From NCBI GenBank assembly GCA_964577355.1, contig CAZNYV010000002.1, positions 1-57,980 of the forward strand: 57,980 nt of DNA. The letters run 5' to 3'. Under the pieces are notes generated by a model. It was given only the letters and a program-made list of their open reading frames with translations, did not search any database and was not told the DNA's origin. Made by a program: the position numbers and the translations under genes. This DNA comes from an uncultured Campylobacteraceae bacterium (GTDB lineage Bacteria; Campylobacterota; Campylobacteria; Campylobacterales; UBA6016). How positions within the stretch are numbered: the first letter of the stretch is position 1; every line of letters starts with the position of its first letter. Below, in pieces: positions 16,868 through 37,720 of this stretch.

Positions 16868-17877
16868 TAAAGCTCGTTTAGCGCATATATCTTATCATCA
16901 GAACTTCTATCACACTCTTTTAGTGCATCAACAGCACTTAGCACCAACTCTTCTGAGGTTCTTTCAGTCTTTATAGGAGTGATAGACGAACAAATAGTCA
17001 GCTCTATCTCCCTGTCGCCAAGAAAGAAATTAGTAGAGCGCATCATATCATTCAGTCTCTCCGCTGTTCGAACAGCGTTTTTAGTATCCGTATGCTTGAG
17101 TAGCATAGCAAATATTCCATCGCCAAAATACGCAACAACATCGCTTCGCCTAGATGTTTTCATGAAAAGCTTGGCCATTGTCTTGTTGACAAGCCCCACA
17201 CCTTTTTCGCTACCAATCTTGATAGCAGCAGTTCCTCTCAACATTGTCAATATAAGTGTTGTAGAGTGTCCAAATTTGGCAATTATTTTTTGTTCTCTTT
17301 CGATTTGGCTGATTATATATCGCTTATTGTACACAGCATATTTCGAATCAAATATACTCTCAGTCTCTATAGCCTTAACAATATTTGCGGTTTTGGTATA
17401 CAAATCTTTCAATATAGCAGCCTGCTTTGCAACAAACGACGACAACCCTTCGCTATCACTTGCCAAATTATCAGCAAAGTTCTTTATTGAGACCTGATTT
17501 GTTAGCGATTTTGCTTCCTCAGCTCTTTTATTCGAGGACTCAATCGAACCTACAAGGGACTTATAGATAACAGCAACACTCTGAAGTATCTCTTTTACAG
17601 AATCGAAGCCTTCTTTGATTTTTGTTTCGACAAGCATTCGTTGCTCATCACCCGCACCCCCATGTGCACCAAGCTGGTCGAGTATCTCTTTCCTAAAATC
17701 AAATGGCTTGTCCTGCAAAAGCGTCTCAAAGTAAAGCTCATAATAGTTTGGCAAAGGAGGTATCTTCTCTAGTGCCATCTTTCTCATAACCTCTTTTGAG
17801 AAATTCTCCAAATCTGCCTGAGTAACCTTACTGATTTGACTATCGAGATCGACTAGCTGTTTTCTTTCTTCTGCCAC
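16867..17877 (-). CDS. degenerate GGDEF-domain protein (GDGIF) with intact RxxD I-site
   Basis: 336 aa. The C-terminal domain aligns to the GGDEF fold: NKRYI.., SRRSDVVAYFGDGIFAML at 17110-17151, TICSSIT, DALKECDRSSDDKIY. The DxD/FK metal-site region is lost (TMLRGT). Confidence 0.6.
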   Translation of the reverse strand: MAEERKQLVDLDSQISKVTQADLENFSKEVMRKMALEKIPPLPNYYELYFETLLQDKPFDFRKEILDQLGAHGGAGDEQRMLVETKIKEGFDSVKEILQSVAVIYKSLVGSIESSNKRAEEAKSLTNQVSIKNFADNLASDSEGLSSFVAKQAAILKDLYTKTANIVKAIETESIFDSKYAVYNKRYIISQIEREQKIIAKFGHSTTLILTMLRGTAAIKIGSEKGVGLVNKTMAKLFMKTSRRSDVVAYFGDGIFAMLLKHTDTKNAVRTAERLNDMMRSTNFFLGDREIELTICSSITPIKTERTSEELVLSAVDALKECDRSSDDKIYALNEL

Positions 17878-17888
17878 TTGTTAGCCTT

Positions 17889-18476
17889 TTATTTTAGACT
17901 TTTTTCTAGAACCTTATCTATCAGTCCATAATCTTTTGCTTCTGCTGCAGACATATAAAAATCTCTCTCTGTGTCTGCTGTTATTTTTTCTATATCCTGA
18001 CCTGTACTGTCAGACATAATTCTATTTAGCTCTTCTTTCATTCTCAAAATCTCTTTTGCCTGAATAGCTATATCCGTTGCCTGTCCTTGAGCGCCACCTA
18101 GAGGCTGATGAATCATTATTCTAGCATGAGATAGAGCATATCTTTTGCCAGCCGTGCCACTAGATAGCAAAAAAGCACCCATTGACGCTGCTTGTCCAAT
18201 ACAAATCGTGCAAATATCAGGCTTGATATATCTCATTGTATCAAAAATACTAAGACCACTAGTTACAACACCACCTGGGGAGTTGATGTAGAGATATATG
18301 TCCTTATCAGCTGCCTCAGCTTCCAAGAATAGCAATTGAGCCACAATTGTACTCGCAACAGCATCGTTTATTTCGCCACTCAAAAATATAATTCTATCTT
18401 TTAAAAGTCTGGAGTATATATCATAGCTTCGCTCTCCTCGACCCGTTCTCTCTACAACATAAGGAATATAGCTCAT
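17889..18476 (-). CDS. clpP: ATP-dependent Clp protease proteolytic subunit
   Basis: 195 aa. [22 protein letters not shown] (catalytic Ser), IMIHQPLGG (His). Confidence 0.95.
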
Positions 18477-24318: not shown

Positions 24319-25386
24319 ATGCTAGTCCACATCTGTTGCTCTGTGGACAGCCACTACTTTTTGACTAGGCTACGAACCGACTATCCAAACGAACGACTGG
24401 TCGGCTATTTTTACAACCCAAATATCTTTCCCAAAAGCGAATATGACCTACGACTCCTAGATGTCAAAAGAAGCTGCAATAGACTCAGTATAGAGCTTAT
24501 TGAGGGCGAATACGACGATAACTATTGGGCAAATTGCGTGCGCGGACTGGAAAATGAACCAGAAAAAGGCAAAAGATGCGAGCTTTGTTTTGATATAAGA
24601 TTTGAGAAAAGCGCTCTAAAAGCAAAAGAGTTAGGGTTTGACAAATTCACCTCAACACTACTCCAAAGTCCTCTAAAGGATAAAAATCAGCTCAAAACAT
24701 CACTCGCCAAAATTGCTTCCAACAGCAATGTGGAGTTTGTTTTTGTAGATTATCTGGCTCAAGGCGGAAAAGAGGCTCAATCCAAAGTCTCACACGAAGA
24801 GGGGCTTTACCGTCAAAACTACTGCGGATGCGTTTGGGGCGTTATCAATCAGAGGGCAAACAATAAAAAATTAGCCGTGGAATGCTTTTCGCCACTTGAC
24901 AAAACTATTATGCCAAGCTCAAGTGAAAAACGAGTATCTATCTATGATGGATTCTCAAACACAAATACAATACAAAAAACAACCAAATCAAAAATACTAA
25001 ATTACAGGCTCTTGAGTGCAAAACTCAGTATCGAAGGAGTTGCGATTCCCTCGTTCGTCTTGGCATATTCAATAAGTAGCAAAAAAAGCTGGAGTAGCGG
25101 AGTTGAGTTTACACAAGATGGCATAGTGCATCTCAAAAAAGAGTCTGCAAAAATAATTTCTCTGTCCAAATTCTGTGAAATATGCAATAAATCTTGGAGA
25201 GATATTCACCACCTACTACAAAACCCGCCTTCGTTTGAGGAGCAGGTGATGGCGAGATTTACAATCAGTGGTGTCGTTTATGATGTTTCACCTGTTTTTG
25301 TGGTTGAAAATTGTACAAACATCTCATTGGTTGCAGCCGAACTGGATGCTTCTATTTTTGAAGATAGTGACGAGCACTACGAGTAG
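24319..25386 (+). CDS. queH: epoxyqueuosine reductase QueH (DUF208) with about 170-aa C-terminal extension
   Basis: VHICCSVDS, FYNPNIFPKSEY, KRCELCFDIRF, LYRQNYCGC within residues 1-185. Residues about 186-355 have no motif I recognise. Confidence 0.7.
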   Translation: MLVHICCSVDSHYFLTRLRTDYPNERLVGYFYNPNIFPKSEYDLRLLDVKRSCNRLSIELIEGEYDDNYWANCVRGLENEPEKGKRCELCFDIRFEKSALKAKELGFDKFTSTLLQSPLKDKNQLKTSLAKIASNSNVEFVFVDYLAQGGKEAQSKVSHEEGLYRQNYCGCVWGVINQRANNKKLAVECFSPLDKTIMPSSSEKRVSIYDGFSNTNTIQKTTKSKILNYRLLSAKLSIEGVAIPSFVLAYSISSKKSWSSGVEFTQDGIVHLKKESAKIISLSKFCEICNKSWRDIHHLLQNPPSFEEQVMARFTISGVVYDVSPVFVVENCTNISLVAAELDASIFEDSDEHYE

Positions 25387-25403
25387 CAATCCATTTAGCT
25401 CAA

Positions 25404-25431
25404 TTAAGTTTATTTTGGTTAGCCTTATAAT
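25404..25431 (+). promoter_or_regulatory. candidate sigma-70-type promoter (TTAAGT-16 nt-TATAAT)
   Basis: Read from the sequence. The -10 lies 26 nt upstream of ATG 25458. RBS GGAGG at 25448-25452. Confidence 0.35.
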
Positions 25432-25457
25432 CTATATTAAATCAACTCGGAGGTCTT

Positions 25458-26465
25458 ATGTTCGTCAGAAGAAAACTACTTATCTCTTCCATGCTTGTCG
25501 GCACCATTCTTCTTACAGGGTGTGGACCAGAAATTAAACTTGCTGAATATGCACCAGCTCATTTGTCAACAGCTACTGTTCTGCCAAGTCAAAGTGAACT
25601 AGAGGGTAAAAAACCAAAAGTTGTTGTTTTGGCAGTAAGCGACACTGGCTCTAGTGCTGCAAGAAATGCAAAAGCTGGTGATGCAGTAACTACAAAAATA
25701 GATAGCATTATCTCTACGAACAAATCTATAGAAGTGGTCGATAGAAGCGCTGCTGCGAAATTGCAAGATGAAGTAAGACTTATTGAGCTCAATAAAAAAT
25801 CAAAATACTCTGGACCAGCAATTGCCGATTTTGTTATTTCTGGCAATATCTCGACAGCATCTAGTGGCTCAAGATTCACAGAAGCATCTACATACTGCGA
25901 CAAAAAAGGCAGATGCTACACGACTCCAGCTAGTTGTACATATAGCGGAAGTGCCGGTGGCATACTTAAGGTCTATGGCTTGCCAGGTCTCAAAGTTGTA
26001 CACGCTGTAGACTTGCAAGGCTCTTCTAGCTTTAGCTCTGAGGGATACTGCAGAAGCAATTACGATGCAAACGGCCTAATATCTCAAGCTGGTGCAAACG
26101 CTGGAAAAAATGCAAAAGTAAAGCTACTAAACTTCTTTAGTCCAAAAGGGTACATAACAGAAAAAAGAGCCAAGGGAAGCGAATCGATATTTTTGGCTCA
26201 ATTTGGTACAGAAGATGGTGTGAAATTCAACGATAATGTCAAAATATACACAGTTTCAGTATCAAAAAATCCTCTAACAGGAAAAGAAAGCAAACAAGAG
26301 GTGTTTCTTGCTGATGCAAAAGTAACAAATCAGCTTACACAGAACACTAGCTGGGTTCTTGTCGAAGATGCAACCGTTGCCTCACAAATCAAACTTGGCG
26401 ATTTTGTGAAAATAGAATATAAACGCGGCTTTATGGACACGCTACAAGATGCTATTAGCGAATAA
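25458..26465 (+). CDS. lipoprotein, CsgG/FlgO/TolB-N-like N-terminal pattern plus beta-rich C-terminal domain
   Basis: 335 aa. Lipobox LLTGC|G. PKVVVLAVSDTG..IEVVDRSAAAKLQDEV..IADFVISGNI resembles the CsgG/LpoB/FlgO-type alpha/beta module. The C-terminus GYITEKRAKGSESIFLAQFGTEDGVKFNDNVKIY resembles a FlgT_C-like barrel. Confidence 0.55.
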   Translation: MFVRRKLLISSMLVGTILLTGCGPEIKLAEYAPAHLSTATVLPSQSELEGKKPKVVVLAVSDTGSSAARNAKAGDAVTTKIDSIISTNKSIEVVDRSAAAKLQDEVRLIELNKKSKYSGPAIADFVISGNISTASSGSRFTEASTYCDKKGRCYTTPASCTYSGSAGGILKVYGLPGLKVVHAVDLQGSSSFSSEGYCRSNYDANGLISQAGANAGKNAKVKLLNFFSPKGYITEKRAKGSESIFLAQFGTEDGVKFNDNVKIYTVSVSKNPLTGKESKQEVFLADAKVTNQLTQNTSWVLVEDATVASQIKLGDFVKIEYKRGFMDTLQDAISE

Positions 26466-27474
26466 TTTCAGCTTGTCACACCAAGAAGGCAAAGAAAAAC
26501 TATTCCAAAAGCTGCTACTGTGTGTGTTTTTGTTTTTTGGTTTGAATTCTCTTTTTGCCGACGACCTTCCATCATGGGTACTGACTCCACCTCAGAGCAC
26601 GAGTGAGTATTTATTTGGTGTCGGCGAGGGTTCAAGCATAAAAGAAGCCAAGGAAGATGCCTTGAATCAAATCGCTTCAAGCATATCAGTATCTATCCAA
26701 TCCAGCTACAAAATGGACGAGTCTTTGAGGCAATCAGGCTCGACATCGATTTATGGCAAAGACATTCAAAACAGCATTAAAAGCGATGTTCAAAAGATAG
26801 ACTTTAGTGAAGTAGAACTTGTTTCAAATGCTGTTTATAACACCAGAAACTACTTGCTACTAAAAGTAAACAGACTAAACTTAGCGAATGAAAAAGAGGA
26901 GCTACTCAAAACCAATCAAGAAAATTTAGCCAAAAAATTTAGCGGCATCTCTGGTCAAAACATTTTGTTTCAGCTGAAAGAGCTAAAACCAATGTTAAAA
27001 ACAGCAGATGAAACAATCGCTCTAGCAAAAATAGCCACTTTTCTTGATAGTAGAATTGACAACAAAGCTGCCATTGCTAGCCTCCAAAAATATGGTCAAT
27101 ACAATGAAGATTTGCTATCGCAAGCACAATTTGTAGTTGTTTCCGACGGCAGCTCAAGAGCTTTTGCTGACGCAATGAAAGAGTCTATAAATGCAGAAAA
27201 AATCAAAACCTCTGACAGAATAGGCAAAAATAGCGTAGTGATTAGAATTACTAGCCAAAGCACTAAAAGCTACATCTACTCTACTTATATGGTAAAATCA
27301 GCTGTCAAAATAGAGCTAATGACGCCTGATAGAGTGGTTGTCTCGACAATCAACAAAGATATTAGTGGCAACTCCAGTCTTGATTATAGCAACGCTACGC
27401 TCGCGGCTGGCTCTAGCTTTTCGGATGAAATAAAAGAGTCCGGTGTTTTTGCATATCTAGGTATCAAACAATAA
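26449..27474 (+). CDS. LPP20-domain secreted protein (long form)
   Basis: 341 aa. Signal peptide ..GLNSLFA|DD. LPP20 core LPSWVLTPP..YLFGVGEGSSIKEAKEDALNQIASSISVSIQS. An alternative TTG start at 26473 is possible. Confidence 0.65.
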   Translation: MLLANNFSLSHQEGKEKLFQKLLLCVFLFFGLNSLFADDLPSWVLTPPQSTSEYLFGVGEGSSIKEAKEDALNQIASSISVSIQSSYKMDESLRQSGSTSIYGKDIQNSIKSDVQKIDFSEVELVSNAVYNTRNYLLLKVNRLNLANEKEELLKTNQENLAKKFSGISGQNILFQLKELKPMLKTADETIALAKIATFLDSRIDNKAAIASLQKYGQYNEDLLSQAQFVVVSDGSSRAFADAMKESINAEKIKTSDRIGKNSVVIRITSQSTKSYIYSTYMVKSAVKIELMTPDRVVVSTINKDISGNSSLDYSNATLAAGSSFSDEIKESGVFAYLGIKQ

Positions 27475-27488
27475 AACAAGGAAGATAA

Positions 27489-28226
27489 ATGTCAAATAAA
27501 ATTACAAAACTATCGTTAGCTGTTGCGTCGGCACTATTTCTTGGAGCTAGTAGCGCTCAAGCTGCGATGTTACTGGGATTTGGAGCTGAGGCTGACTATT
27601 TCAATCCTCAAGTCGGTGGCTCTATGACTTATAATGGGGATTTGAAAACAACTACTGACTTTGGTGGAAAAAACGAAGGTACTTACCAGTTTGGTGCTTT
27701 TTTCGAGCATCCGGTGCCAATCATACCAAACCTTAGGGTAGACTATACTCCGCTGAAAATAAATGCAGCAAGCACAATTAATGCAAATCACGGCTCATTT
27801 AGTACTGGCGTGGCAACAAACAAAATCCAGCTAAATACACTAGATGTCACACCATACTACGAAATTCTGGACAATATTGTCAGCCTAGACCTTGGCGTAA
27901 CGGCTAGAATAATTGACGCCAGTATAGATACTACACAAGGTGCAAACACCAATAGTGAAAACAAATCAGTTGTATTGCCAATGGGCTATATTGCCGCAGA
28001 GGTCAAGCTTCCATTGACAGGACTTAGAATAAATGCTGATTTGAAATATTTGGCTGCAGCTGGCGATAAATATATGGACTCAAAAGCAAAGATTTCATAT
28101 GACATACTTGGTGGTCTTGGAGTTGAGGCTGGATATAGATACCAAGCACTCAAGCTAAACCACTTCAACTTTGACTCAGATGTAACGATAAAAGGTCCAT
28201 TTGTAGGTATGCACTACATATTCTAA
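27489..28226 (+). CDS. outer-membrane beta-barrel protein (resembles the TIGR04219-type family)
   Basis: 245 aa. Signal peptide ..SSAQA|A, alternating beta-strand pattern, FEHPVPIIPNLR motif, C-terminal ..GMHYIF. Confidence 0.6.
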   Translation: MSNKITKLSLAVASALFLGASSAQAAMLLGFGAEADYFNPQVGGSMTYNGDLKTTTDFGGKNEGTYQFGAFFEHPVPIIPNLRVDYTPLKINAASTINANHGSFSTGVATNKIQLNTLDVTPYYEILDNIVSLDLGVTARIIDASIDTTQGANTNSENKSVVLPMGYIAAEVKLPLTGLRINADLKYLAAAGDKYMDSKAKISYDILGGLGVEAGYRYQALKLNHFNFDSDVTIKGPFVGMHYIF

Positions 28227-28244
28227 TTTCTCAAAGGTTTCGTC

Positions 28245-29750
28245 ATGCTCTTTAGATTGATGTTTTTACTATTTTTTGCATTAGTATTGTTTGGTGCAGA
28301 TGATGAGTTCGAAAAATACAAAAATGGCATCAACAAAGAGTATAGCGAATACTACGAAAAAGAGATGAAAGCCTTTGAGACATTCTCTAAAACCGCTGGC
28401 GGGATTCCTGACAAAGTAAATCCTTATCAAAATATGAAAGTTTTGCCACCAAAACCAGTTGTTGCAAAACCAAGCACACCTCCAAAGATTGAGACACCAA
28501 AGCCAGAGCCCGTTACTGTCAAGCCAATCAACAAAATTCCAGAGGGAACTCCGAGCGATTCACAGCTCAAGACTGTCAAATTAGACAAGATAGACCCGTC
28601 AAAACTTATCAAACCAGAGCCAGTACCTGTCACAAAAGAGCCCTCTGTTGTAACACCTGAAAAATTCCAACTAGCCTTTTTTGGGACGAATATTGATTTG
28701 ACACCAGAAAATATTAAATTTACAAAAACTATTAATGGCAATAATACATCAGAAATAGCAATGAAAATCAAGCAAAATGACGCTCGATTGATAAAAGAGA
28801 TGTCCTCTATCAGACAGAATTACAATCTAAACGACTGGGACTCATTTATCTTTGTACAAACACTTGTCAATACACTCTACACCGAAAACCAAAAAAAGAT
28901 AAAAACACTTCACGCCATCGACATTATGAGAGGGCTTGGATATAGAGCACGATTTGCTGAAGATGACTCAGGAGCGCCTTATATACTATTGGAAACAAAA
29001 CAACAGCTGTTCTCGAAAGCATATATAGACAAAGATGGTGGCAGGTTCTATATATTTGCAATAGATGCTCATCCAAGAGCCAGCTTTGCCAAAGCTCTCT
29101 ATTTTTCAAACTCACCAGATGATAGTGTTGGTCAACCAATAGATATGATAATGCACAATGACCCAAAACTTGGCACAAGCAAAAAACCTGTCAAGCTTAG
29201 CTGGGATTTTGATGACAAACCATACCAAATGACAGTAAACCCAAATGAAAATCTAACATCGCTGATGGATATGTATCCTGTTACAGACTATGCAGTTTAT
29301 ATGCAATCTCGCTCAGGCAAGGCACTAGCTGGTGAAATAGCTGCAAATTTATTTTCGACCATCAAGCAAAACAACTACTCAAAAGAAAAATCTGTAGCTT
29401 TTATACTCAAATTCACCCAAAAAGCGTTTGTTTACAAAACAACTTTTGAGGCGTACGGGTATGAAAGACCACTATTTTTGGAGCAAGCAATACTATTGCC
29501 ATACACCGATTGCAAGCATAGAGCCATGATGCTTTCAAACTATTATCGAGAAATTTTGGGGCTTGATAGCATCGGACTGCTCTACCCTGGTCATATTTCA
29601 CTTGGGGTTTCATACAATGGCAGTGGCGATTTTTATATGCTAGATGGCAAGAAATATTTTGTAACAGACGGCACATATTTCTATGCTCTACCTGGCACAA
29701 GTCAACCATCATTCAAAGGAATGGAGGCAAAGTTTGTGCCTACAAAATAA
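28245..29750 (+). CDS. secreted protein: Pro/Lys-rich linker plus C-terminal transglutaminase/papain-like Cys-His-Asp arrangement
   Basis: 501 aa. Signal peptide ..LVLFGA|DD. PPKPVVAKPSTPPKIETPKPEPVTVKP linker. C-terminal YTDC(423)KHRAMMLSNYYREILGL..LYPGH(450)ISLGV..YFVTD(475)GT spacing matches transglutaminase-like cysteine peptidase cores (inference). Confidence 0.5.
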   Translation: MLFRLMFLLFFALVLFGADDEFEKYKNGINKEYSEYYEKEMKAFETFSKTAGGIPDKVNPYQNMKVLPPKPVVAKPSTPPKIETPKPEPVTVKPINKIPEGTPSDSQLKTVKLDKIDPSKLIKPEPVPVTKEPSVVTPEKFQLAFFGTNIDLTPENIKFTKTINGNNTSEIAMKIKQNDARLIKEMSSIRQNYNLNDWDSFIFVQTLVNTLYTENQKKIKTLHAIDIMRGLGYRARFAEDDSGAPYILLETKQQLFSKAYIDKDGGRFYIFAIDAHPRASFAKALYFSNSPDDSVGQPIDMIMHNDPKLGTSKKPVKLSWDFDDKPYQMTVNPNENLTSLMDMYPVTDYAVYMQSRSGKALAGEIAANLFSTIKQNNYSKEKSVAFILKFTQKAFVYKTTFEAYGYERPLFLEQAILLPYTDCKHRAMMLSNYYREILGLDSIGLLYPGHISLGVSYNGSGDFYMLDGKKYFVTDGTYFYALPGTSQPSFKGMEAKFVPTK

Positions 29751-29861
29751 TTTGAATCAAAAACATTCTATAGTCCAAAGAACTTTCTGTGTCAACTTTA
29801 ATAATAATGTTGCTTAAATAGCATAAATCGTTTTGTGAGTCATTTGCGACTTGAATGGTTT

Positions 29862-29877
29862 TGGCACAAGGCAGGCA
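29862..29877 (+). promoter_or_regulatory. candidate sigma-54 (RpoN) promoter TGGCAC-N7-GGCA
   Basis: TGGCACAAGGCAGGCA has GG and GC at the canonical 10-nt spacing, 38 nt upstream of ATG 29916. The -12 TT is missing. It also forms part of a TGGCA-N14-TGCCA inverted repeat. Confidence 0.3.
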
Positions 29878-29915
29878 AAATGCCATCAATCTAAACACAA
29901 AAGAGGAGAATTTAC

Positions 29916-30497
29916 ATGAAATCAAGAGTTCTAAAAAGCGTTATTGCTGCGGCATCTCTAGTACTATTTGCTGGTTGCGCTGCTGAGCAGTCTCCAGTAG
30001 CACAAGCACCTGCTGCTGTAAAAAACAAATTTGCTGGTGCTCCATCGTGGGTACTTAATCCAAACCTTGAGGGCGGAATATGTGCACTTGGTAGTGCTGG
30101 ACCAAATGCTGCAGGGTTTAACTTCCAAAGAACGCAAGCGATGGCAAACGGTAGAGATGAGCTTGTCAGACAACTTGAGCTAAAAGTTAGCAACATGGTA
30201 AAAGACTTTACACAAGTAACAGGTGTGGGCAATGCGGCGACTATCGACAAAGTATCTAGCTCTGTTTCAAAACAAGTTGCAAGCCAAACACTTGCTGGTT
30301 CAAAACTAAAATCTACTTGGGTAGCTGACGATGGTGAGATGTTTGTATTGATGGTGATGGATCCAAATGCAGTTGCAAAAGCCACAAACGACTCTGTCAA
30401 AAGCTCTCTCAAAAACGATCAAGCGCTATGGCAACAATTTCAGGGTAAAAAAGCTCAAGATGAGCTAAGTGCTGAAATAGATAAAATGGTGAAATAA
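29916..30497 (+). CDS. LPP20/FlgP-like lipoprotein
   Basis: 193 aa. Lipobox LFAGC|A. Core GAPSWVLNP..GGICALGSAG..QRTQAMANGRDELVRQLELKVSNMV. Confidence 0.6.
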   Translation: MKSRVLKSVIAAASLVLFAGCAAEQSPVAQAPAAVKNKFAGAPSWVLNPNLEGGICALGSAGPNAAGFNFQRTQAMANGRDELVRQLELKVSNMVKDFTQVTGVGNAATIDKVSSSVSKQVASQTLAGSKLKSTWVADDGEMFVLMVMDPNAVAKATNDSVKSSLKNDQALWQQFQGKKAQDELSAEIDKMVK

Positions 30498-30501
30498 CAT
30501 C

Positions 30502-30954
30502 ATGAAAATATACGGGGCACTAATCATTTTAGTTGCCTCGGTACTTCTTACAGGTTGTGCAGAACTCCAACACGCCTCGTCTAAACCATCAGCTCCTGCA
30601 ATCAATTCAGCTACAAGCTCTAACACCAAACCTGCTTGGTTTTACAGCCCATGTCAAGATGGAAAAATAGGCGGTGTGGGTATTTCTGGAATGCATATCA
30701 ATGGTATATCCGCCCAAAGAGAGCTTGCAGTTAGTAGAGCAATAGATGAAATAGCAAGGCAACTAGGCGTAAAAGTTTCAAACATCCTCAAAACAAGTAC
30801 CGTGGCTAACAATTCGAGTGCATCAACGATGATGGAAAGCTATAGCTTCCAAACGGTTGATGGGAGAAATATAAGCGCTTCAATCGCAGGAATATGGAAT
30901 GACACAACTACTGATGAGCTGTATATCTGGATGTTGACATCGCAAAAACAATAG
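30502..30954 (+). CDS. LPP20/FlgP-like lipoprotein (paralogue of the preceding gene)
   Basis: 150 aa. Lipobox LLTGC|A. Core KPAWFYSP..GKIGGVGISG..AQRELAVSRAIDEIARQLGVKVSNIL. Confidence 0.6.
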   Translation: MKIYGALIILVASVLLTGCAELQHASSKPSAPAINSATSSNTKPAWFYSPCQDGKIGGVGISGMHINGISAQRELAVSRAIDEIARQLGVKVSNILKTSTVANNSSASTMMESYSFQTVDGRNISASIAGIWNDTTTDELYIWMLTSQKQ

Positions 30955-30986
30955 TTCTTCAAAAGTAAAAAATCAAGGAGTAAGAA

Positions 30987-31679
30987 GTGCTAAAAATATT
31001 TTTGGTATTTGTGTCTTTGTTTGTGGGCTTGCTTTTTGCAGCCCAACCGCCAGTTGGTAAAATAGATAAAACCGAGGGCAGTGTAAAGCTCTTAAAAGCA
31101 GGTACAATCAAAAAATTAAATGCCAATAAAGGCGATGAAATTTTTGCCAGCGACATTGTTATTACTGGGGAGAGCTCAAAGGCACTTGTCAAACTAACCA
31201 ATGGCACAAGCATAGTTGTTGGCTCACAAAGCAAAGTAGAGTTCAAGTCACCAGATTTGGCGATGCAATCAGAGGGTAAAAGTCTATACGCTGTAAATAA
31301 GCGAAATGCCAACGATAGCTTCAAAGTAGCTACTGACTTCGCAACCATTGGTGTCAAAGGCACAGAGTTTATAGTATCCTCCAACAAAGACGACAATAGA
31401 GTTTCTCTCAAAAAAGGACTTGTTGATGTCACTTCAAATGACGGTAATTTTGAGATACACAAAAAACAACCAAAAGGTGATTATGCAGAGTTTGCAGAGG
31501 GTATAAAATCAGAGTATCAAAAATACCAATCAGACCTTGAAAAAGAGTTTGTGGAATTCAAAAAATCCTTTGAACTGACACCAGATAAAACAGTTAGCTT
31601 CAATGGTAAAAAAGTTTACGAAAACAAATTTAATGACAAAATCACAGAAGAGTTCAAGGAGCTTGAAAACTTCAAATGA
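30987..31679 (+). CDS. FecR-domain periplasmic protein
   Basis: 230 aa. GTG start 7 nt after AAGGAG, with a signal peptide. GSVKLLKAGTIKKLNANKGDEIFASDIVITGESSKALVKLTNGTSIVVGSQSKVEF is a typical FecR beta-sandwich pattern. Confidence 0.65.
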   Translation: MLKIFLVFVSLFVGLLFAAQPPVGKIDKTEGSVKLLKAGTIKKLNANKGDEIFASDIVITGESSKALVKLTNGTSIVVGSQSKVEFKSPDLAMQSEGKSLYAVNKRNANDSFKVATDFATIGVKGTEFIVSSNKDDNRVSLKKGLVDVTSNDGNFEIHKKQPKGDYAEFAEGIKSEYQKYQSDLEKEFVEFKKSFELTPDKTVSFNGKKVYENKFNDKITEEFKELENFK

Positions 31680-33712
31680 GAGAGCACCTGTTAGCGAGAT
31701 ACATACTAGTTATAGCTTCGCTCGCTCTCACCCTGCTCGTGTGGTACTACGAAGTGCCACCCTTTCAACAAATCTCACTCAAATTTAACGATATAAATTA
31801 TGCATTCAACAGCAATTATCCAGAACAAAGCGTGGAAATTGTTGTAGTTGACGAGAAAAGTGTTAACAAATACGGCAGATGGCCTTGGGATAGGGCGCTA
31901 CTAGCCAAGGGGCTTGAGAAGCTTTCAAGTGCAAAAGCCGTAGGACTGGATATTGTTTTTTCAGAAAACTCCAGCGAAGTATCAGACTTAGCATTGGCAA
32001 AACAAATAGAAAAACAAGGCAATGTCATAGGCGGTTTTTTCTTGAGACCACGAGCCACAGAACAGCCAAACAAAAACCAACTAGAAAAACTAGCAGACTC
32101 ATCCATGGAGAGGCTTGATGGCAAGCTTCCATTTTACAAATTCCCATATGCTGAGCTAAACATCGAACCTATTTTAAATTCAACACAGCTCTCGGGTTGC
32201 TTCTCAACAGTTCCAGACAGTGACGAGCTTTTTAGAAGATACCCTGCAGCTTTTATCTACAACAACTCAGTACTACCATCACTTGGGGTTCAGCTTCTCA
32301 GGTATGCACTAAATATAGATGCGGAACTTGCCAGTAACGACTATCAACAATATCTAATGCTCCACGACCTAAAAATTTCGTTAGATACCGATGGCTTTGC
32401 GAAACTGAACTACTATCCTCTCAAAAGCTACAATCTAATCTCCTTTGCGGATGTTCTTGAAGGCAAGGTACAGCCGAGCTTTTTTGACAACAAAATAGTC
32501 ATCGTAGGAATCTCCGAAGCTGGAATATCCGACATCAGAGCGACACCACTCGGACAAATCGCTGGTCCAATACTGCACGCTACATTCATCTCAAATGTTC
32601 TGCAAGGAACGATTTTAAATCAACAAAAACTCTTCGATAGCGCTTTTATAGCACTATTCTTCCTGCTTCCTCTATTTGTTCAGTTTAGGGTCAAAAACAT
32701 CTCCCATCGAATGTCCATCTATGCTCTGACATATATTATGTATTTTTGCGTTTCGATTGTTCTGTACTCATACAAAGCCCAATGGCTAAATACATTTTAT
32801 CCACTCTTTGCGATTTCATTTTCTGTAGTTTTGAATGAGTTTTTGACTTTCAAAATTGACGAAAAGCAGGCAAAATTTATCAAAGGTGCTTTCACAAACT
32901 ATATGTCAGAAGATTTATTGGAGCAACTAGTCGATAATCCTGAAAAACTAACTCTAACTGGTGAGGAAAAAGAGTTGACCATCCTCTTTAGCGACATTAG
33001 AAATTTCACAACCATATCTGAATCACTGACATCAAAAGAGCTCGTCTCTCTACTAAATAGCTATTTCACACCTCTCACCAAAATCATCCAAGACGAACAC
33101 GGGACTGTTGACAAGTATATCGGGGATGCCATTATGGCTTTTTTCAACGCTCCGTTAGATTGCCAAGACCACCCAGCTGTTGCCTGCAGGTGCGCACTCA
33201 AGATGCAAGAGGCTCTAAAACATATGAACAAAGAGTTTGATAAATTTTCAAAACGCCCGATTGCGATGGGTATTGGTATCAACACCGGAGAGGTTACAAT
33301 CGGCAATATGGGTGCAGCAAATAAATTCAATTATACTGCAATAGGTGACAATGTAAATATTGCCTCTAGGCTGGAGGGGATAAATAAAAATTTTGGGACT
33401 GGAATCATCATCAGCGAATCAACGAAGGTTCAGCTGGATGAAAATGAGTTCTTGTGCAGGTATCTAGGGCGAGTTCCGCTCAAAGGAAAAGAGAAGAAAA
33501 TTGATATTTATGAGCTGCTTGAAAACAATGAACACAACCAAAGAAAGTGCAAATATTTCCAAACTATATTTGATAAAATAGAGGAGGGTGAAATTGTTAG
33601 TATGAGCGATAACATATTTGAGCAATTAGAACAAACAGATGAAGTAGGATATACAATCTGTCTAAATAAAATCAACGGAAAGGGTATAGATGCTAGAGGT
33701 AATAATTCTTAA
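31676..33712 (+). CDS. CHASE2-sensor class III adenylate/guanylate cyclase
   Basis: 678 aa. ATGA overlap with the FecR gene. N-terminal TM plus a periplasmic CHASE2-like region (VVVDEKSVNKYGRWPWDR), 3 further TM helices, and a cyclase core: ILFSDIRNFTTISE, DKYIGDAIMAFFNAP, GINTGEVTIGNMG, YTAIGDNVNIASRLEG. The Lys/Thr specificity pair suggests adenylate cyclase (inference). Confidence 0.8.
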   Translation: MREHLLARYILVIASLALTLLVWYYEVPPFQQISLKFNDINYAFNSNYPEQSVEIVVVDEKSVNKYGRWPWDRALLAKGLEKLSSAKAVGLDIVFSENSSEVSDLALAKQIEKQGNVIGGFFLRPRATEQPNKNQLEKLADSSMERLDGKLPFYKFPYAELNIEPILNSTQLSGCFSTVPDSDELFRRYPAAFIYNNSVLPSLGVQLLRYALNIDAELASNDYQQYLMLHDLKISLDTDGFAKLNYYPLKSYNLISFADVLEGKVQPSFFDNKIVIVGISEAGISDIRATPLGQIAGPILHATFISNVLQGTILNQQKLFDSAFIALFFLLPLFVQFRVKNISHRMSIYALTYIMYFCVSIVLYSYKAQWLNTFYPLFAISFSVVLNEFLTFKIDEKQAKFIKGAFTNYMSEDLLEQLVDNPEKLTLTGEEKELTILFSDIRNFTTISESLTSKELVSLLNSYFTPLTKIIQDEHGTVDKYIGDAIMAFFNAPLDCQDHPAVACRCALKMQEALKHMNKEFDKFSKRPIAMGIGINTGEVTIGNMGAANKFNYTAIGDNVNIASRLEGINKNFGTGIIISESTKVQLDENEFLCRYLGRVPLKGKEKKIDIYELLENNEHNQRKCKYFQTIFDKIEEGEIVSMSDNIFEQLEQTDEVGYTICLNKINGKGIDARGNNS

Positions 33713-34238
33713 GCTTGTAAGCAGTCTCACAGGCTATCTTTTTGAGGGGTACTTGGATTCAATAAAAAGTATAAATGTGGAAGGAGCTCCTAGCTGGTAC
33801 GGCAAAGACCACAGTAGCAAAAATCTTTACGCTTATGGCTATGCCAAAGGTGATATGGAGTCTATCGAGATAGCCAGAAACAACTGTCACATCGGGATGG
33901 TAAAAAAGATAAATGGAATCATAGAAGTGGTTGTGTATGACAATTTCAGAAATCTAAAAGACCCAAAAGAAAAACAGCTTGTCGAAGAGTTCAAAAAAGA
34001 TAGTAACCTAGAGGTATTTGTCACAAAAAATATGACATATGAAAAGCTAGATTCATTTGAAGAACAAAAAGAGAGTATGTTCAAAAAATACCGACCAGCC
34101 CAAAGTTTCGCTGGCGGTATGATACCAAAACAAGCCATCATCGATTATCAAAAAGAGAGACTTCAAAAAATCAAGTATGAAATCAATCACTATACATCAA
34201 ACAGTGCAGAGGATGAGATGGATAAAGAAAAAAAGTAG
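33690..34238 (+). CDS. hypothetical protein with LPP20-like core (GAPSWY..YAYGYA..IEIARNN)
   Basis: 182 aa. Overlaps the cyclase stop by 23 nt. Hydrophobic N-terminus without a clear cleavage site, and a K/E-rich C-terminus. Confidence 0.45.
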   Translation: MLEVIILKLVSSLTGYLFEGYLDSIKSINVEGAPSWYGKDHSSKNLYAYGYAKGDMESIEIARNNCHIGMVKKINGIIEVVVYDNFRNLKDPKEKQLVEEFKKDSNLEVFVTKNMTYEKLDSFEEQKESMFKKYRPAQSFAGGMIPKQAIIDYQKERLQKIKYEINHYTSNSAEDEMDKEKK

Positions 34239-35031
34239 GGCAAAACCTTATCGGATTATCGAAGGAATTGGAGCTAACGCAATAGCTTCATTTGACTCCT
34301 TCGGGAAATCCTATGACTTTTATGTTTCTCTGTCAAAAAAGCTTGTGACCCTTTCTATCGTCAAAAAACCGATAATTTACGAAATCACAAAACAGCTATA
34401 TTTCTCTTTTTACAAGAATTTTTCTAGTGTTCTGTGGACAAGTATTGTGTTTGGCTCACTCTTCATAGGTGTGATTATGAATGTACTCAAGCAGTATGGC
34501 TTGTCGGATATGACTGGAGATGTTGTTGTCAAGCTTTTTGCTGTAGAAATAGCACCAATAATCACAACAATGCTTCTAATTATCAAATCCTCCCTACCGA
34601 TGAATGTTGAACTAGCGCAAATGAAAGCTACAAAAGAAATGGACACGCTTCAGTTTTTCAACATAGATTCACTTGAATATATTTTTGTGCCGAGAGTTAT
34701 ATCTGGAGTCATCTCAGTGACTTTTCTCAGCTACTTTTTTTCGCTTATCATGGTCATCAGCGCATTTGTCTTCTCATCTATATTTTTTGAAATCAATCTT
34801 GGGAAATTTATATATAGTGTTGCAAAATCTATCGATATATTTGACATCATCATATTTTTCATCAAAGGGTTGCTGATAGGCTTATTTATTTTTACGATTC
34901 CGACCAGCAACGGATACAACACCTCTGTGTCGTACTACAAAATAGGCTCTCTCATATCTAGCGGAACCCTGAGACTGTTACTGATAATCATGATAATAGA
35001 GGTGCTAACATTAGCGATAAGATTTCTCTAG
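34177..35031 (+). CDS. divergent MlaE-like ABC permease
   Basis: 284 aa (ATG 34213 is a plausible alternative start). FAVEIAPIITTMLLIIKSSLPMNVELAQMKATKEMDTLQFFNIDSLEYIFVPRVISGVIS aligns with the MlaE core (LLRELGPVV..EIGxMrvTEQidAlE..dP...lv.PR), but the AGRAGSA segment is replaced. Confidence 0.7.
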   Translation: MKSITIHQTVQRMRWIKKKSRAKPYRIIEGIGANAIASFDSFGKSYDFYVSLSKKLVTLSIVKKPIIYEITKQLYFSFYKNFSSVLWTSIVFGSLFIGVIMNVLKQYGLSDMTGDVVVKLFAVEIAPIITTMLLIIKSSLPMNVELAQMKATKEMDTLQFFNIDSLEYIFVPRVISGVISVTFLSYFFSLIMVISAFVFSSIFFEINLGKFIYSVAKSIDIFDIIIFFIKGLLIGLFIFTIPTSNGYNTSVSYYKIGSLISSGTLRLLLIIMIIEVLTLAIRFL

Positions 35032-35075
35032 CATTTTTATATAACAATGCAGTAGCTGACAACAAGATAGCAGAG

Positions 35076-35477
35076 ATGAAGCAGAGTGCTTTTTTTGGGC
35101 TTGTCTCAAATACGCTTCCTCTCTTGGCATCAACATCCGCATATGAAAATATTGCTATAGTAAACCACTATAATAGTAACAATAGCCAATGCAATTTTAT
35201 TGTGCAAAGTTCATTTGAGGCGCTTGGTTTTGATAGAGAATCTATATACAAGATGCCAAGCAACCTCGACGAAAGGGAGCTATTTGCGACTATGCTATTG
35301 CGAGCGTGCCTTGTAAATGGTATTGTTATTATTGACAGGGCAACAACCCTATTGAGCAATGAGAGTGACTCTGATTTTCTCGATAAATGCGTAGCAGTTT
35401 TGAGTGACTTTTGCTCCAAAATCTCGATTTTTGATACAAAATCCAATATGAAATGGTATAAAAAACAGTATGATTAA
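35076..35477 (+). pseudogene. N-terminally deleted, degenerate MlaF-like ABC ATPase remnant
   Basis: The 133-aa ORF aligns only to the C-terminal half of ABC ATPases (..AYENIAIV.., EALGFDRESIYKMPSNLDERELFATMLLRACLVNGIVIIDRATTLLSNES). The LSGGQ signature reads NLDERE and the Walker B DE reads DR. Only 44 nt separate it from the mlaE stop, which leaves no room for Walker A or the Q-loop. Confidence 0.55.
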
Positions 35478-36318
35478 AAATATCGAATTCAAAGTAGGTC
35501 TATATATTATCTTCTCTGTAGCTGTCATCATCTCTTCGTTGGTATATATTGCATACAAAAAAGAGATACTCACTGATACAAATGTGTATCACCTCACTTC
35601 TGGCTCAGCTGATGGTATTATCGAGGGAATACCCGTTGTTTTTTCTGGTTTTGAGATAGGCAAAATAACAGATGTCAAGCTGACTCCAAATGGAACTGTC
35701 TCGGTCGACATCAGAGTTCCAAGAGAGCACACAAAATGGATTAGAAAAAACAGCCACTTTGTATTTACCAAGCCACTCATCGGTTCTCCAAAAATCGTCA
35801 TAGAGACAGCGGGGCTTGAGTATCCTATTTTGGCAAACAGAGCAAATGCAAAAATAGAGATAGCCGACAGCATCAATGACGCCATCGCAAAAGCAAAACC
35901 CATCATGGAGAGAGTTGACAAGATTTCAGCAAACCTAGAAACAGTATCAAACACTCTAGCACAAAAGAATTCCGCAGCAGCAATGGCTACTGGCAACAAC
36001 ACAAGCGGAGAAGATGTTGCCGAAACTCTCAAAAATACAAAAAAAATAACCGCACAAATAGTAAAACTTCTCGACAAAACAGACAAAACAGTCTTTGACG
36101 ACGATGGCATTATGAAGCAGACTAGAGAGATGCTTGTAAATATCAACAAAAACCTAGAAAATGTCAGAAAAATAACAGCCAACGGCGCCGATGCGAGCAA
36201 AGATTTGGCTCCTCTGACAAAAGAGATAGACATGGCACTCAAATCAACAAATGACCTACTCATAGAAATCGATAGCAAGATACCTTTCAAAGAAAAAAAG
36301 GAGATTAAACTACCTTGA
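35470..36318 (+). CDS. MlaD/MCE-domain protein
   Basis: 282 aa. N-terminal TM helix, MCE core GIIEGIPVVFSGFEIGKITDVKL, long helical C-terminus. 8-nt overlap with the preceding ORF. Confidence 0.7.
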   Translation: MIKNIEFKVGLYIIFSVAVIISSLVYIAYKKEILTDTNVYHLTSGSADGIIEGIPVVFSGFEIGKITDVKLTPNGTVSVDIRVPREHTKWIRKNSHFVFTKPLIGSPKIVIETAGLEYPILANRANAKIEIADSINDAIAKAKPIMERVDKISANLETVSNTLAQKNSAAAMATGNNTSGEDVAETLKNTKKITAQIVKLLDKTDKTVFDDDGIMKQTREMLVNINKNLENVRKITANGADASKDLAPLTKEIDMALKSTNDLLIEIDSKIPFKEKKEIKLP

Positions 36319-36998
36319 GAACTTATATGTTGAAATATTTTGCCCTAACGACTATTCTGATTTTTTTGACAGCGTGTTCATCAAAAGGCTCGCCAGCATG
36401 GGTAACCAACGCTTCTGGCTATGTTCAAAGACTAGAACTTAGCAAACTAAACGACAGCGGTGGCTTGTCAAAAACTATCAAGAAGAAGGCTCAAAACGCT
36501 GTTTCTCAAGGTGGCAGTATCTATGATTTGCAACAAATCGAGCTAATCGATAGCGCCATGGACTGCGCAACACTGCAAGATTTAAATATGACTGGCTATG
36601 TTACTCTGAGCAAAATCGAATCATATCCAAAGCTAGAAAGTTACAAAAGGTTTATAAACGCTGAGTTTGGCAGCTCCGACATTGCTGTCCTCCCAGCAGA
36701 GTATCAAGGTGTAGCAAAAAGCATCCTAGACAAAAACTACAATCAGGCCATCAAAAACTGTATGGATATAAACGACAACATATCGAAGCTAGTCGCTCTC
36801 GGAGTGGTTGGGAAGTATGACTCTAGCAATCAAGAAATATACCAAAATATGTTGACTATAGCCAAGCAAGAAGGTTACAAAACAGTCATCCTATCTGCCT
36901 ACGAGAGGTTAGCCAATATATATGACAAAAATGCAGAACCAGCAAAAGCCGAGGATATTCGCAAGAAAATCAATGCACTAAAAACAGCTGGAAATTAA
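36315..36998 (+). CDS. hypothetical lipoprotein (helical/TPR-like C-terminus)
   Basis: 227 aa. Lipobox FLTAC|S. TTGA overlap with the mlaD stop, with ATG 36327 as an alternative start. Confidence 0.5.
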   Translation: MRTYMLKYFALTTILIFLTACSSKGSPAWVTNASGYVQRLELSKLNDSGGLSKTIKKKAQNAVSQGGSIYDLQQIELIDSAMDCATLQDLNMTGYVTLSKIESYPKLESYKRFINAEFGSSDIAVLPAEYQGVAKSILDKNYNQAIKNCMDINDNISKLVALGVVGKYDSSNQEIYQNMLTIAKQEGYKTVILSAYERLANIYDKNAEPAKAEDIRKKINALKTAGN

Positions 36999-37012
36999 AT
37001 AAACCACAAAAA

Positions 37013-37321
37013 TCAGCTAACCCCAAACTCCACTGCGGTTTTGGTGTAGAATATATTTGCCTTGCTAGTTGCCAATCTGGCAAATAGCTTCTCACAGGCG
37101 TCACCATCTGCTACAACCACAATTTCTATAGCCTCATCGACAAGCTCAAAGAAGCCAGCACTATGGCAAACTCCTTGATGGTCGTATCCTTTTTGTATAT
37201 CAAATATGCTTATTCCCTTGATACCGACAGTCCTTGTTTCTCGGAGCAAAAACTCATCAATACTAAGCCCGTCAAACCGTCTGCTTCTAACTGAGAAAAA
37301 CGATATTTTATACCCTTTCAT
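37013..37321 (-). CDS. DUF190 (PII-like) protein commonly paired with crcB
   Basis: 102 aa, immediately downstream of crcB. Its size and GIKGISIF..GYD pattern fit DUF190. Confidence 0.55.
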   Translation of the reverse strand: MKGYKISFFSVRSRRFDGLSIDEFLLRETRTVGIKGISIFDIQKGYDHQGVCHSAGFFELVDEAIEIVVVADGDACEKLFARLATSKANIFYTKTAVEFGVS

Positions 37322-37330
37322 CCATAGTCC

Positions 37331-37720
37331 TTATACAAAAAATTTGGCTAAGAGCCAAAATGTGGCTATTCCAGCCACTGTCATCAACAGCGAGCCGCCG
37401 AGATGAAGGCAGATACCAATGAGTGCCGTTGAGTATTTTGCATTTTGCAATATCGAGACTATCTCAGCCGAAAATGTAGAAAATGTTGTCAAACCGCCCA
37501 AAAAACCCGTAATAACAAGCACTCTCCACTCAGGCGAGAGATGAGAGTTCTGGGCAAAAAACGCGACGAAAAATCCAACTAGATAGCCGCCGATAAGATT
37601 CGCGCCCAGCGTTCCTAGTGGAATGCTTTCGTACAGAGGATTTAATTTGACACCCAAAAACCAGCGAAAAACAGCACCAAAAGACGAGCCAATCGAAATG
37701 GCTAAAATGGTTTTTAGCAT
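37331..37720 (-). CDS. crcB: fluoride channel CrcB/FluC
   Basis: 129 aa with 4 TM helices. [19 protein letters not shown] and [12 protein letters not shown] motifs. Confidence 0.9.

Follow-up and report, generated by a model that had tools for sequence, protein, structure and literature searches.

A conserved Campylobacterales gene array of Lpp20-type envelope proteins, a large Cys-His-Asp protein family and a CHASE2 cyclase

Do thirteen closely packed envelope genes of an uncultured Campylobacteraceae bacterium encode a functional unit, or do unrelated units lie side by side? We examined this question for an array in a 57,980-nucleotide stretch of contig CAZNYV010000002.1 (GenBank assembly GCA_964577355.1), referred to here as the window. 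An initial annotation, made from the nucleotide letters and their translations, had proposed the array as a candidate for an undescribed system. Checking of the open reading frames (ORFs) found all thirteen genes (g01-g13, Table 1) present and co-directional on the + strand, spanning 25458-36998. Three modules make up the array. Module A (g01-g06 and g09) encodes lipoproteins, a beta-barrel protein and the Cys-His-Asp protein g04. Module B (g07-g08) encodes a FecR-domain protein and a CHASE2 nucleotide cyclase, and module C (g10-g13) is an Mla-like block. Each of the domain families is known; the combination and the g04 family are undescribed.

We compared gene neighborhoods in all fetched loci, by iterative searches with the 13 array proteins, and in Pfam-annotated contigs. 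At least five genomes or contigs besides the window (L001-L003, L081/82, L086/92 and L091) carry the full gene set, at 59-72% identity, which bears out the proposal of a real, conserved and undescribed neighborhood. Together with the window, these Campylobacterales loci make up the Type I arrangement, in which the full set is co-directional; L001-L003 represent three GTDB species. The Type III arrangement (L085) comprises g09-g04, reversed g06 and g05, the FecR gene, the CHASE2 cyclase gene, a phosphodiesterase gene and an inverted g13-g12-g11-g10 block. The Type IV arrangement (L102) has the cyclase, FecR and g02 genes on one strand, divergent from g01-g05-g06, and contains no g04, g09 or Mla genes. 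Orthologous cyclase genes (E ~1e-124 to 1e-128) and FecR genes thus adjoin Lpp20-module genes in three arrangements. The initial annotation had staked its proposal on co-conservation; Lpp20-type genes and the FecR/cyclase genes stay adjacent in the rearranged loci L085 and L102.

A second line of evidence comes from Bacteroidales, in which stand-alone CHASE2 proteins are encoded in co-directional operons with g04 homologues (L028, L044, L061 and L077). Three of these operons, L077 (831-11359), L028 and L044, have the order CHASE2, a gene for a protein of ~300 amino acids (aa), WD40, TPR-caspase (Peptidase_C14), DUF4384, a ~216-aa gene and g04. The order in L061 (6659-14545) is Lpp20-like, DUF5683, CarboxypepD_reg/BACON, g04, CarboxypepD_reg and CHASE2. 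Because modules A and B adjoin in three Campylobacterales arrangements and g04 shares operons with CHASE2 in Bacteroidales, comparative gene order makes an A-B association beyond simple shared ancestry well supported.

Some relatives carry additional genes beside the array genes. At 15647-18037, between its cyclase gene and its inverted Mla-like block, L085 encodes a phosphodiesterase of 796 aa (metallo-beta-lactamase/PDEase_II, GAF and HD domains), so that this cluster has a cyclic-nucleotide eraser as well as a writer. Upstream of g04, L081 (8800-9934) and L086 (7879-9008) encode a 210-aa protein and a stand-alone cyclic-nucleotide-monophosphate (cNMP)-binding protein of 163-165 aa. These two genes lie directly upstream of g04 in L081, and a 299-aa Ketoacyl-synt_C gene intervenes in L086. 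The 58-kb window encodes no homologue of either protein. A Peptidase_C14 caspase gene lies ahead of module A in L087, a Campylobacterales locus.

The g04 product had been described as a secreted Pro-rich protein with a C-terminal Cys-His-Asp signature, and its homologues agree with this description. All of 31 homologues keep C423 and H450, and at least 90% keep D475. In the AlphaFold (AF2) model (predicted local distance difference test score, pLDDT, 85.7), the Cys opens helix 423-438, the His opens strand 450-455 and the Asp comes after strand 469-474. The modeled core has the papain/transglutaminase arrangement, with Cys, His and Asp in this order on helix, strand and strand. Foldseek matches to the model are weak (E >= 0.013) and include 3kd4 (the best, at E 0.013), menin, TG2 and PNGase. 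The g04 protein itself has no Pfam match. Sub-threshold Transglut_core matches are found in 10 of the 31 homologues (best 0.004) and DUF553 matches in 4, and no homologue reaches the Transglut_core (Pfam accession PF01841) cut-off. A search of PDB sequences with the family profile returned no match, and none of the homologues found by a word-index search carries a Pfam annotation.

The same family profile detected at least 589 loci among GTDB species representatives and at least 1,895 clusters (50% identity) at E<=1e-30 in a library of 1.84 billion proteins. The g04 family is large, lacks a Pfam model and is undescribed.

Lpp20-family genes resembling g05, g06 or g02 are the commonest neighbors of g04 homologues across phyla. 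We counted Lpp20-family genes within 5 kb of a g04 homologue in 74 usable loci from nine taxon groups. Such a gene is present in 43 loci and in seven of the nine groups, and is directly adjacent to g04 in 21 loci. The pair is found in Campylobacterota (5/5 loci), Gammaproteobacteria and other Proteobacteria (8/8), Bacteroidales (26/42), and Flavobacteriales, Nitrospirota, Deltaproteobacteria and KSB1 (1/1 each); the count in Spirochaetales is 0/1. Metagenome-assembled genomes of Bacteroidales in which the pair is common include those of Prevotella, Alistipes and Bacteroides. We set aside two further groups of g04 neighbors, in Cloacimonadota (PSP1, RlmN, PBP1 and a glycosyltransferase) and in Gammaproteobacteria (DsbA, CcmH and CcmI), as lineage-specific housekeeping synteny that is uninformative on function.

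Nearly all domain assignments of the initial annotation held when tested with Pfam, NCBIfam, hhalign and Foldseek. Among them is the statement that four products share the P-[SA]-W...G-x-G...A core of LPP20; these are g02, g05, g06 and, more remotely, g09. Both g02 (34.2 bits, E 3.4e-8) and g05 (48.1 bits, E 1.6e-12) exceed the gathering cut-off of Pfam LPP20 (Pfam accession PF02169, 25.9 bits). The g05 protein aligns over its full length with Helicobacter pylori Lpp20 (5ok8, E 0.0023), which is its sole significant PDB match, and g02 weakly matches the first domain of H. pylori HP1454 (4kzs, E 0.044). The g06 protein has no Pfam match, aligns with the g05 family in hhalign (100%, E 5e-45) and is always encoded together with g05 in Campylobacterales loci.

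The g09 protein has neither a Pfam match nor, as a profile, a PDB sequence match. It is 57-71% identical among six orthologues, and hhalign relates it to the g05 family (87%, E 4e-6) and the g02 family (92%, E 6e-7). Its reading frame overlaps those of both the cyclase g08 and the MlaE-type permease g10 in the array. In L083, L085, L087, L093 and L094 it lies directly upstream of g04, and we therefore assign it to module A. A metagenome scan with g09 returned only nine loci, of which five are distant (30-37% identity) and lack any other array gene. The distant homologues stand alone in L095-L099, in one case (L097, 3291-3860) directly after dnaX. The g09 family may thus have a role that is independent of the cluster.

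The lipoprotein g01 has no Pfam or NCBIfam match, and a PDB sequence search with it gave nothing useful. Its AF2 model (pLDDT 82) finds FlgT as the best Foldseek match (3w1e, E 7.6e-15), over 292 columns but with a template-modeling score (TM-score) of only 0.33. The LPHT ring (8z5n) scores E 7e-14, and CsgG (E 4.5e-6 to 1e-4, the former for 4uv2), HpaA, PelC and LptE also follow FlgT. Among 16 g01 homologues, Pfam reports weak matches to FlgT_C in two and FlgT_M in one, together with a few weak LpoB and CsgG matches, the latter in a single homologue. The g01-family profile reaches only E 0.2 against the FlgT C-domain, and hhalign aligns only the lipobox region with Escherichia coli CsgG. The earlier label "CsgG/FlgO-like" is thus apt at the level of the fold and fails as an assignment to the CsgG family, to which g01 has no Pfam match. 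Predicted long hairpins at residues 125-195 are polar, Cys-rich and, on inspection, not amphipathic. As modeled, these hairpins would not span a membrane, which argues against a pore.

The beta-barrel protein g03 is a full-length member of NCBIfam TIGR04219 (205.3 bits, E 7.6e-61; cut-off 105 bits). L081 (11604-12749 and 13777-14721) and L086 (11572-13964) encode different lipoproteins of 381-388 and 314 aa without Pfam matches. We considered the 314-aa lipoproteins as divergent forms of g01 and rejected this assignment (17-18% identity, poor alignment).

Module B begins with g07, which matches Pfam FecR (46.2 bits, E 6.3e-12). It is not a FecR anti-sigma regulator: it has no anti-sigma domain and no transmembrane part, and it scores 18 bits against an NF007296 cut-off of 385. 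Pfam and NCBIfam scans found no extracytoplasmic function (ECF) sigma factor and no TonB-dependent receptor in the array. The g07 stop codon overlaps the start of g08 by 4 nt. The g08 protein contains a CHASE2 domain (165.7 bits, E 2e-48) and a Guanylate_cyc domain (104.8 bits, E 5.3e-30). Inspection found the motifs FSD, DKYIGD and IGDNVNIASR intact, which we take to supply the two Asp residues that bind metal, the Lys/Asp pair that sets specificity and the Asn/Arg pair. The protein reads as active and is probably an adenylate cyclase, the Lys/Asp pair pointing to ATP as the substrate.

Module C contains a divergent permease, g10 (Pfam MlaE, E 3.9e-37; TIGR00056, 87 bits against a cut-off of 212), and an MCE protein, g12 (Pfam MlaD, E 5.9e-8; TIGR00996, below cut-off; TIGR04430, 26.5 bits against a cut-off of 135). 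A further MlaE/MlaD equivalog test of g10 and g12, with NF033619, gave 74 bits against a cut-off of 315. Between the two genes, g11 had been called a "Walker-A-less MlaF fossil", and the alignment upholds this name. Residues 8-112 align in register with MlaF 89-194, from the Q-loop to the D-loop. Homology is clear only with an 11-sequence ABC ATPase profile (hhalign 91.5%, E 8.4e-7; 16.6% against E. coli MlaF alone). Walker A is missing, the LSGGQ signature reads LDERE, and the Walker B Asp-Glu reads Asp-Arg with R88 invariant. Pfam ABC_tran matches neither g11 nor five g11 homologues. A word-index search with g11 found only g11 itself and was uninformative, and a PDB sequence search gave nothing useful. 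We also tried g11 as an MlaB/STAS protein and rejected this possibility (hhalign 0.7%). Its sequence reads as a conserved, catalytically dead ATPase remnant.

The lipoprotein g13 has no Pfam, NCBIfam or PDB match; in L081, L085 and L092, a g13 orthologue comes after the MlaD gene. The 58-kb window contains no MlaF-like ORF and no match to E. coli MlaC. Judged from the divergent permease and MCE sequences and the dead ATPase, module C is probably a paralogue of the housekeeping Mla system.

The packing of the array is exactly as first described, with ORF spacings of -62 to +44 nt apart from a single 165-nt gap. From g01 to g13 the junctions measure -17, +14, +18, +165, +4, +32, -4, -23, -62, +44, -8 and -4 nt, so that genes overlap at 6 of 12 junctions. 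The originally assigned start, 25404, is only trivially off: no start codon is possible before 25458, 54 nt further on. Within 25000-37500 we found 11 terminator-like sites, all on the - strand and none on the + strand. A sigma-54-like motif in the 165-nt gap (TGGCAC-N5-AGGC) lies ~40 nt upstream of the g05 start codon. Relaxed matches to this pattern number 4 in the window against 1.4 expected, which is not significant. A scan for the sigma-70 consensus was uninformative, as shuffled sequence yielded at least as many sites. An Rfam scan of the window detected no RNA family, including no fluoride riboswitch near crcB. The GC content of the array (0.37-0.40) falls within that of the window (0.37-0.44) and so bears no mark of foreign DNA.

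We read the export signals from the translations. Lipoboxes are present in g01, g05, g06 and g13, signal peptides in g02, g03, g04 and g07, and transmembrane segments in g08, g10 and g12; the export signal of g09 is ambiguous and g11 is cytoplasmic. The count of 11 of 13 equals the minimum given in the initial annotation. Genes unrelated to the array flank it on both sides: cyclophilin and QueH genes upstream on the + strand, and a DUF190 gene, crcB and a gene for a TPR protein downstream on the - strand, convergent with the array.

Table 1. Genes of the array and flanking or internal features of the window (coordinates are window positions)
Feature	Position	Strand	Description
QueH protein	24319..25386	+	355 aa; QueH domain covers residues 1-174 only; C-terminal ~180 aa match no family
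g01, lipoprotein	25458..26465	+	Lipobox LLTGC; FlgT-like middle and C-terminal domain; CsgG/LpoB/LptE-type fold
g02, secreted 341-aa protein	26449..27474	+	N-terminal Lpp20 domain; HP1454-like
g03, small outer-membrane beta-barrel protein	27489..28226	+	TIGR04219 family
g04, secreted protein	28245..29750	+	N-terminal helix, Pro-rich linker, globular domain with Cys-His-Asp core
g04/g05 intergenic gap	29751..29915		165 nt; sole sizeable gap; possible internal promoter
Sigma-54-like motif	29862..29876	+	Within the g04/g05 gap
g05, Lpp20-type lipoprotein	29916..30497	+	Pfam LPP20
g06, Lpp20-type lipoprotein	30502..30954	+	Paralogue of g05
g07, secreted FecR-domain protein	30987..31679	+	230 aa; signal peptide only
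g08, CHASE2 sensor and class III nucleotide cyclase fusion	31676..33712	+	Pfam CHASE2 and Guanylate_cyc
g09, remote Lpp20-like protein	33690..34238	+	182 aa; hydrophobic N-terminus; highly conserved
g10, divergent MlaE-type permease	34177..35031	+	Pfam MlaE
g11, degenerate ABC ATPase remnant	35076..35477	+	133 aa; MlaF position
g12, MCE/MlaD protein	35470..36318	+	N-terminal transmembrane helix; C-terminal extension of ~180 aa past the MCE domain
g13, lipoprotein	36315..36998	+	Lipobox LTAC; travels with the Mla-like block
DUF190 gene and crcB (fluoride channel)	37013..37720	-	Convergent with the array end
TPR protein (PflB)	37734..40112	-	792 aa

We propose that at least modules A and B act as one functional unit, a reading of gene content and order to which we give slightly less than an even chance. 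The FlgT-fold protein and four Lpp20/SHS2-fold proteins of module A would build an assembly that is attached to the outer membrane on the periplasmic side, with g03 as its barrel anchor in this lineage. On its Pro-rich stalk, g04 would process or cross-link parts of this assembly or the linkage that holds it to the wall. Through g07, the CHASE2 domain of g08 would be informed of the assembly's state, and g08 would in turn set cytoplasmic cyclic AMP (cAMP). Module C could be an ATP-independent MCE lipid conduit or a trans-envelope tether that serves the same structure, with g11 kept as a structural stub on MlaE. Gene content, folds, motifs and the conserved neighborhood are observed; we infer how the products interact physically, what g04 acts on, which nucleotide is made and what module C does.

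Several further observations favor this scheme. The packing is operon-like, with overlaps at half of the junctions and no + strand terminator-like site. The g09 gene belongs to module A elsewhere and is wedged here, with overlaps, between the cyclase and MlaE genes. Cyclic-nucleotide accessories travel along, namely the cNMP-binding protein (L081 and L086) and the phosphodiesterase (L085). FecR/CHASE2 pairs have precedents in the Burkholderia BiofilmReg operon and in Sinorhizobium meliloti, and the dead ATPase remnant g11 is conserved.

Three unrelated envelope units might instead stand side by side without coupling, held together by synteny inherited within one Campylobacterales clade: an Lpp20-type operon, a FecR/CHASE2 cAMP sensor of an external cue and a degenerate Mla paralogue. 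We regard this explanation as somewhat unlikely, and a number of findings favor it or otherwise weigh against the proposed unit. Module A occurs without modules B and C in the Type II arrangement (L083/84, L087, L093 and L094), in which an Lpp20 gene, g09 and g04 lie on one strand and g06, g05 and g01 on the other, followed by g02, and in which no FecR, CHASE2 or Mla gene is found within 7-10 kb. The functional link that the initial annotation drew from the tight packing therefore does not extend to one indivisible system. Some genomes have g04 or g01 alone (L088 and L100), and no Cloacimonadota locus has an Lpp20-family gene within 5 kb of g04 (0/14). Gammaproteobacterial g04/Lpp20 pairs have no CHASE2 or Mla genes nearby. 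L081 and L086, the Type I loci closest to the array, lack g03; unrelated lipoproteins stand in for g01 and g03 there, so that module A varies in its lipoprotein complement. The association of module C with A and B is seen only in Types I and III and in one order, and may be inherited synteny. The Mla-like block also keeps the MlaE-MlaF-MlaD order of H. pylori HP1466-HP1465-HP1464 (PMC11756786), and the 165-nt gap could hold a separate promoter. Mere juxtaposition does not readily account for the same FecR and cyclase orthologues adjoining Lpp20-module genes in three orders and orientations, for the interleaving of g09 between the cyclase and MlaE genes in overlapping frames, or for common operons of CHASE2 and g04 in another phylum. 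That FecR/CHASE2 would sense an outer-membrane scaffold and couple it to lipid trafficking, as the initial annotation envisaged, is conjecture.

Module A could also be a flagellar motor accessory resembling an H-ring or basal disk, with FlgT-like and FlgP-like parts and a cyclase next door by chance, a minority view that we hold to be improbable. Structurally, g01 is most like FlgT of the Vibrio H-ring, and an SHS2-like fold, of a kind that forms flagellar-motor rings and disks, is common to Lpp20, FlgP and the N-domain of FlgT (PMC12222027). H. pylori Lpp20 and HP1454 co-purify with FapH and FlgP (PMC11756786). The TPR protein downstream of the array is PflB (Campylobacter jejuni 9hmf_L, E 2.9e-100; 9leq 'Motility protein PflB', E 3e-85), from which the organism can be taken to be flagellated and to have a high-torque motor of the Campylobacter type. 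In L083, L085 and L088, flhA, flhB or flgK/flgI lies within 10 kb. Flagellar genes are scattered in Campylobacterota genomes, and one within 10 kb is not unexpected. The array genes themselves are not in a flagellar operon, and pflB is convergent, ~0.7 kb downstream, behind crcB and the DUF190 gene. No PDB match of g05 is named FlgP (whether the PDB copy holds FlgP was unchecked), and the ring-forming hairpin insert of FlgP is not evident, although no model of the insert was made. The initial annotation had allowed that these might be ordinary flagellar disk genes; module A is not an ordinary flagellar disk, as g05 matches Lpp20, g02 matches HP1454 and the core g04/Lpp20 pair is abundant in Bacteroidales. 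Bacteroidales such as Prevotella, Alistipes and Bacteroides are not known to be flagellated. Deletion of H. pylori hp1456 leaves motility, motor structure and bacitracin resistance as in the wild type (PMC11756786), a result that counts against a flagellar accessory role and, with no barrier phenotype either, also against the envelope assembly that we prefer.

It is very improbable that the array encodes a curli-like (type VIII-like) secretion and assembly system in which g01 is a CsgG-type channel exporting g04 or another product. The Foldseek matches of g01 to CsgG and the weak Pfam CsgG match of one homologue are consistent with such a channel. FlgT, which forms no channel, is a far better match to g01, which has no match to Pfam CsgG (Pfam accession PF03783) and aligns with the E. 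coli protein only at the lipobox; its hairpins are of the wrong character, and genes resembling CsgE, CsgF or amyloid subunits are absent. We give least credence to a Pycsar-like or other cyclic-nucleotide anti-phage defense island. The cyclase domain of g08 does match PADLOC PycC models (best E 8e-30), Bacteroidales relatives contain caspase, WD40 and TPR genes, and a small cNMP-binding protein is encoded nearby in L081. The PycC score of 102 bits nevertheless equals the generic class III cyclase Pfam score of 105 bits and reflects the shared fold only. The cyclase has a periplasmic CHASE2 sensor, no effector (cNMP-binding with transmembrane or TIR domain) is present, nine other array proteins tested gave no meaningful PADLOC match, and 11 of 13 products are exported or membrane proteins.

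Full-text searches place the preferred reading, that of modules A and B as a unit, against what has been published. They found no literature that combines LPP20 with a transglutaminase-like protein. For CHASE2 with FecR they returned only the pairs of Burkholderia and S. meliloti, and for CHASE2 with caspases they returned domain fusions and not this neighborhood. The factors recognized by CHASE2 have been described as unknown (PMC5192318). The recurrent link of CHASE2 to FecR, Lpp20-fold and Cys-His-Asp proteins makes it testable whether a protein assembly, rather than a small molecule, is sensed. Lpp20 is a well-known H. pylori antigen, and its pairing with a large uncharacterized enzyme family offers a first genomic handle on its function. 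Given the conserved but dead 133-aa ATPase piece, one may ask whether ATP hydrolysis is dispensable for MlaE-type permeases to work or to act as scaffolds. A broader and unlikely extension is that g04 and Lpp20-fold lipoproteins form a widespread outer-membrane assembly (Bacteroidota, Gammaproteobacteria, Campylobacterota and others) whose integrity or maturation is the natural input of CHASE2 through a FecR partner, which would give CHASE2 its first physiological signal. The output here would be cAMP, and the circuit would have captured the ATPase-less MlaE/MCE conduit or tether.

Among known systems, the H. pylori lpp20 operon (HP1454 and HP1456/Lpp20; 4kzs and 5ok8) is a likeness from the same phylum, with several Lpp20-fold envelope proteins encoded together. 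The operon presumably also includes HP1457. Unlike the array, it has no described g04-type enzyme, FlgT-like lipoprotein, FecR/CHASE2 cyclase or Mla-like block. The Vibrio H-ring (FlgT) and the Campylobacter basal disk (FlgP and FlgQ) share the same fold families and outer-membrane-anchored lipoproteins with module A. The Vibrio H-ring also contains FlgO and FlgP. The array differs from both in having sequences closer to Lpp20 than to FlgP and in lying outside a flagellar operon. Transglutaminase and papain-fold peptidases (3kd4, BDI_1141) resemble g04 in their Cys at a helix N-terminus, His on a strand and subsequent Asp, whereas the N-terminal helix, the Pro-rich linker and the domain at ~140-400 are specific to the g04 family.

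Module B has counterparts in two lineages. The S. meliloti locus contains clr, cyaD1 (a CHASE2 adenylate cyclase), SMc02177 (FecR domain) and SMc02178 (periplasmic) (PMC5498481). As in the array, a CHASE2 class III cyclase gene stands beside genes for a secreted FecR-domain protein and another periplasmic protein, and a cNMP-binding regulator is encoded nearby, as in L081 and L086. The locus has no Lpp20, FlgT-like, transglutaminase-like or MCE genes, and its signal is plant-derived. The Burkholderia BiofilmReg operon and the PA4035-like pair of Pseudomonas aeruginosa combine a LysM-FecR protein with a CHASE2 histidine kinase (PMC5192318). Here too a periplasmic FecR-domain gene lies immediately upstream of a CHASE2 sensor gene. 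The output of BiofilmReg is a histidine kinase and response regulator rather than a cyclase, its FecR protein carries LysM, and the partner gene encodes a DUF4136 protein, not an Lpp20 or g04 protein.

Module C is comparable with the Mla transporter (E. coli MlaFEDB and its H. pylori counterpart) in its MlaE-family g10, its MCE/MlaD protein g12 and its E-[F]-D order. It differs in the ATPase stub without Walker A, in MlaE and MlaD sequences far below the NCBIfam equivalog cut-offs, in the absence of MlaA, MlaB and MlaC from the window, and in an extended MlaD followed by a lipoprotein. PqiABC and LetAB are ATPase-independent MCE systems. They share with module C an MCE protein with a long extension and the lack of an ABC ATPase, and Pqi also includes an outer-membrane lipoprotein. 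PqiABC and LetAB use PqiA/LetA-type membrane proteins where module C uses an MlaE permease, and they offer a possible functional analogy for module C.

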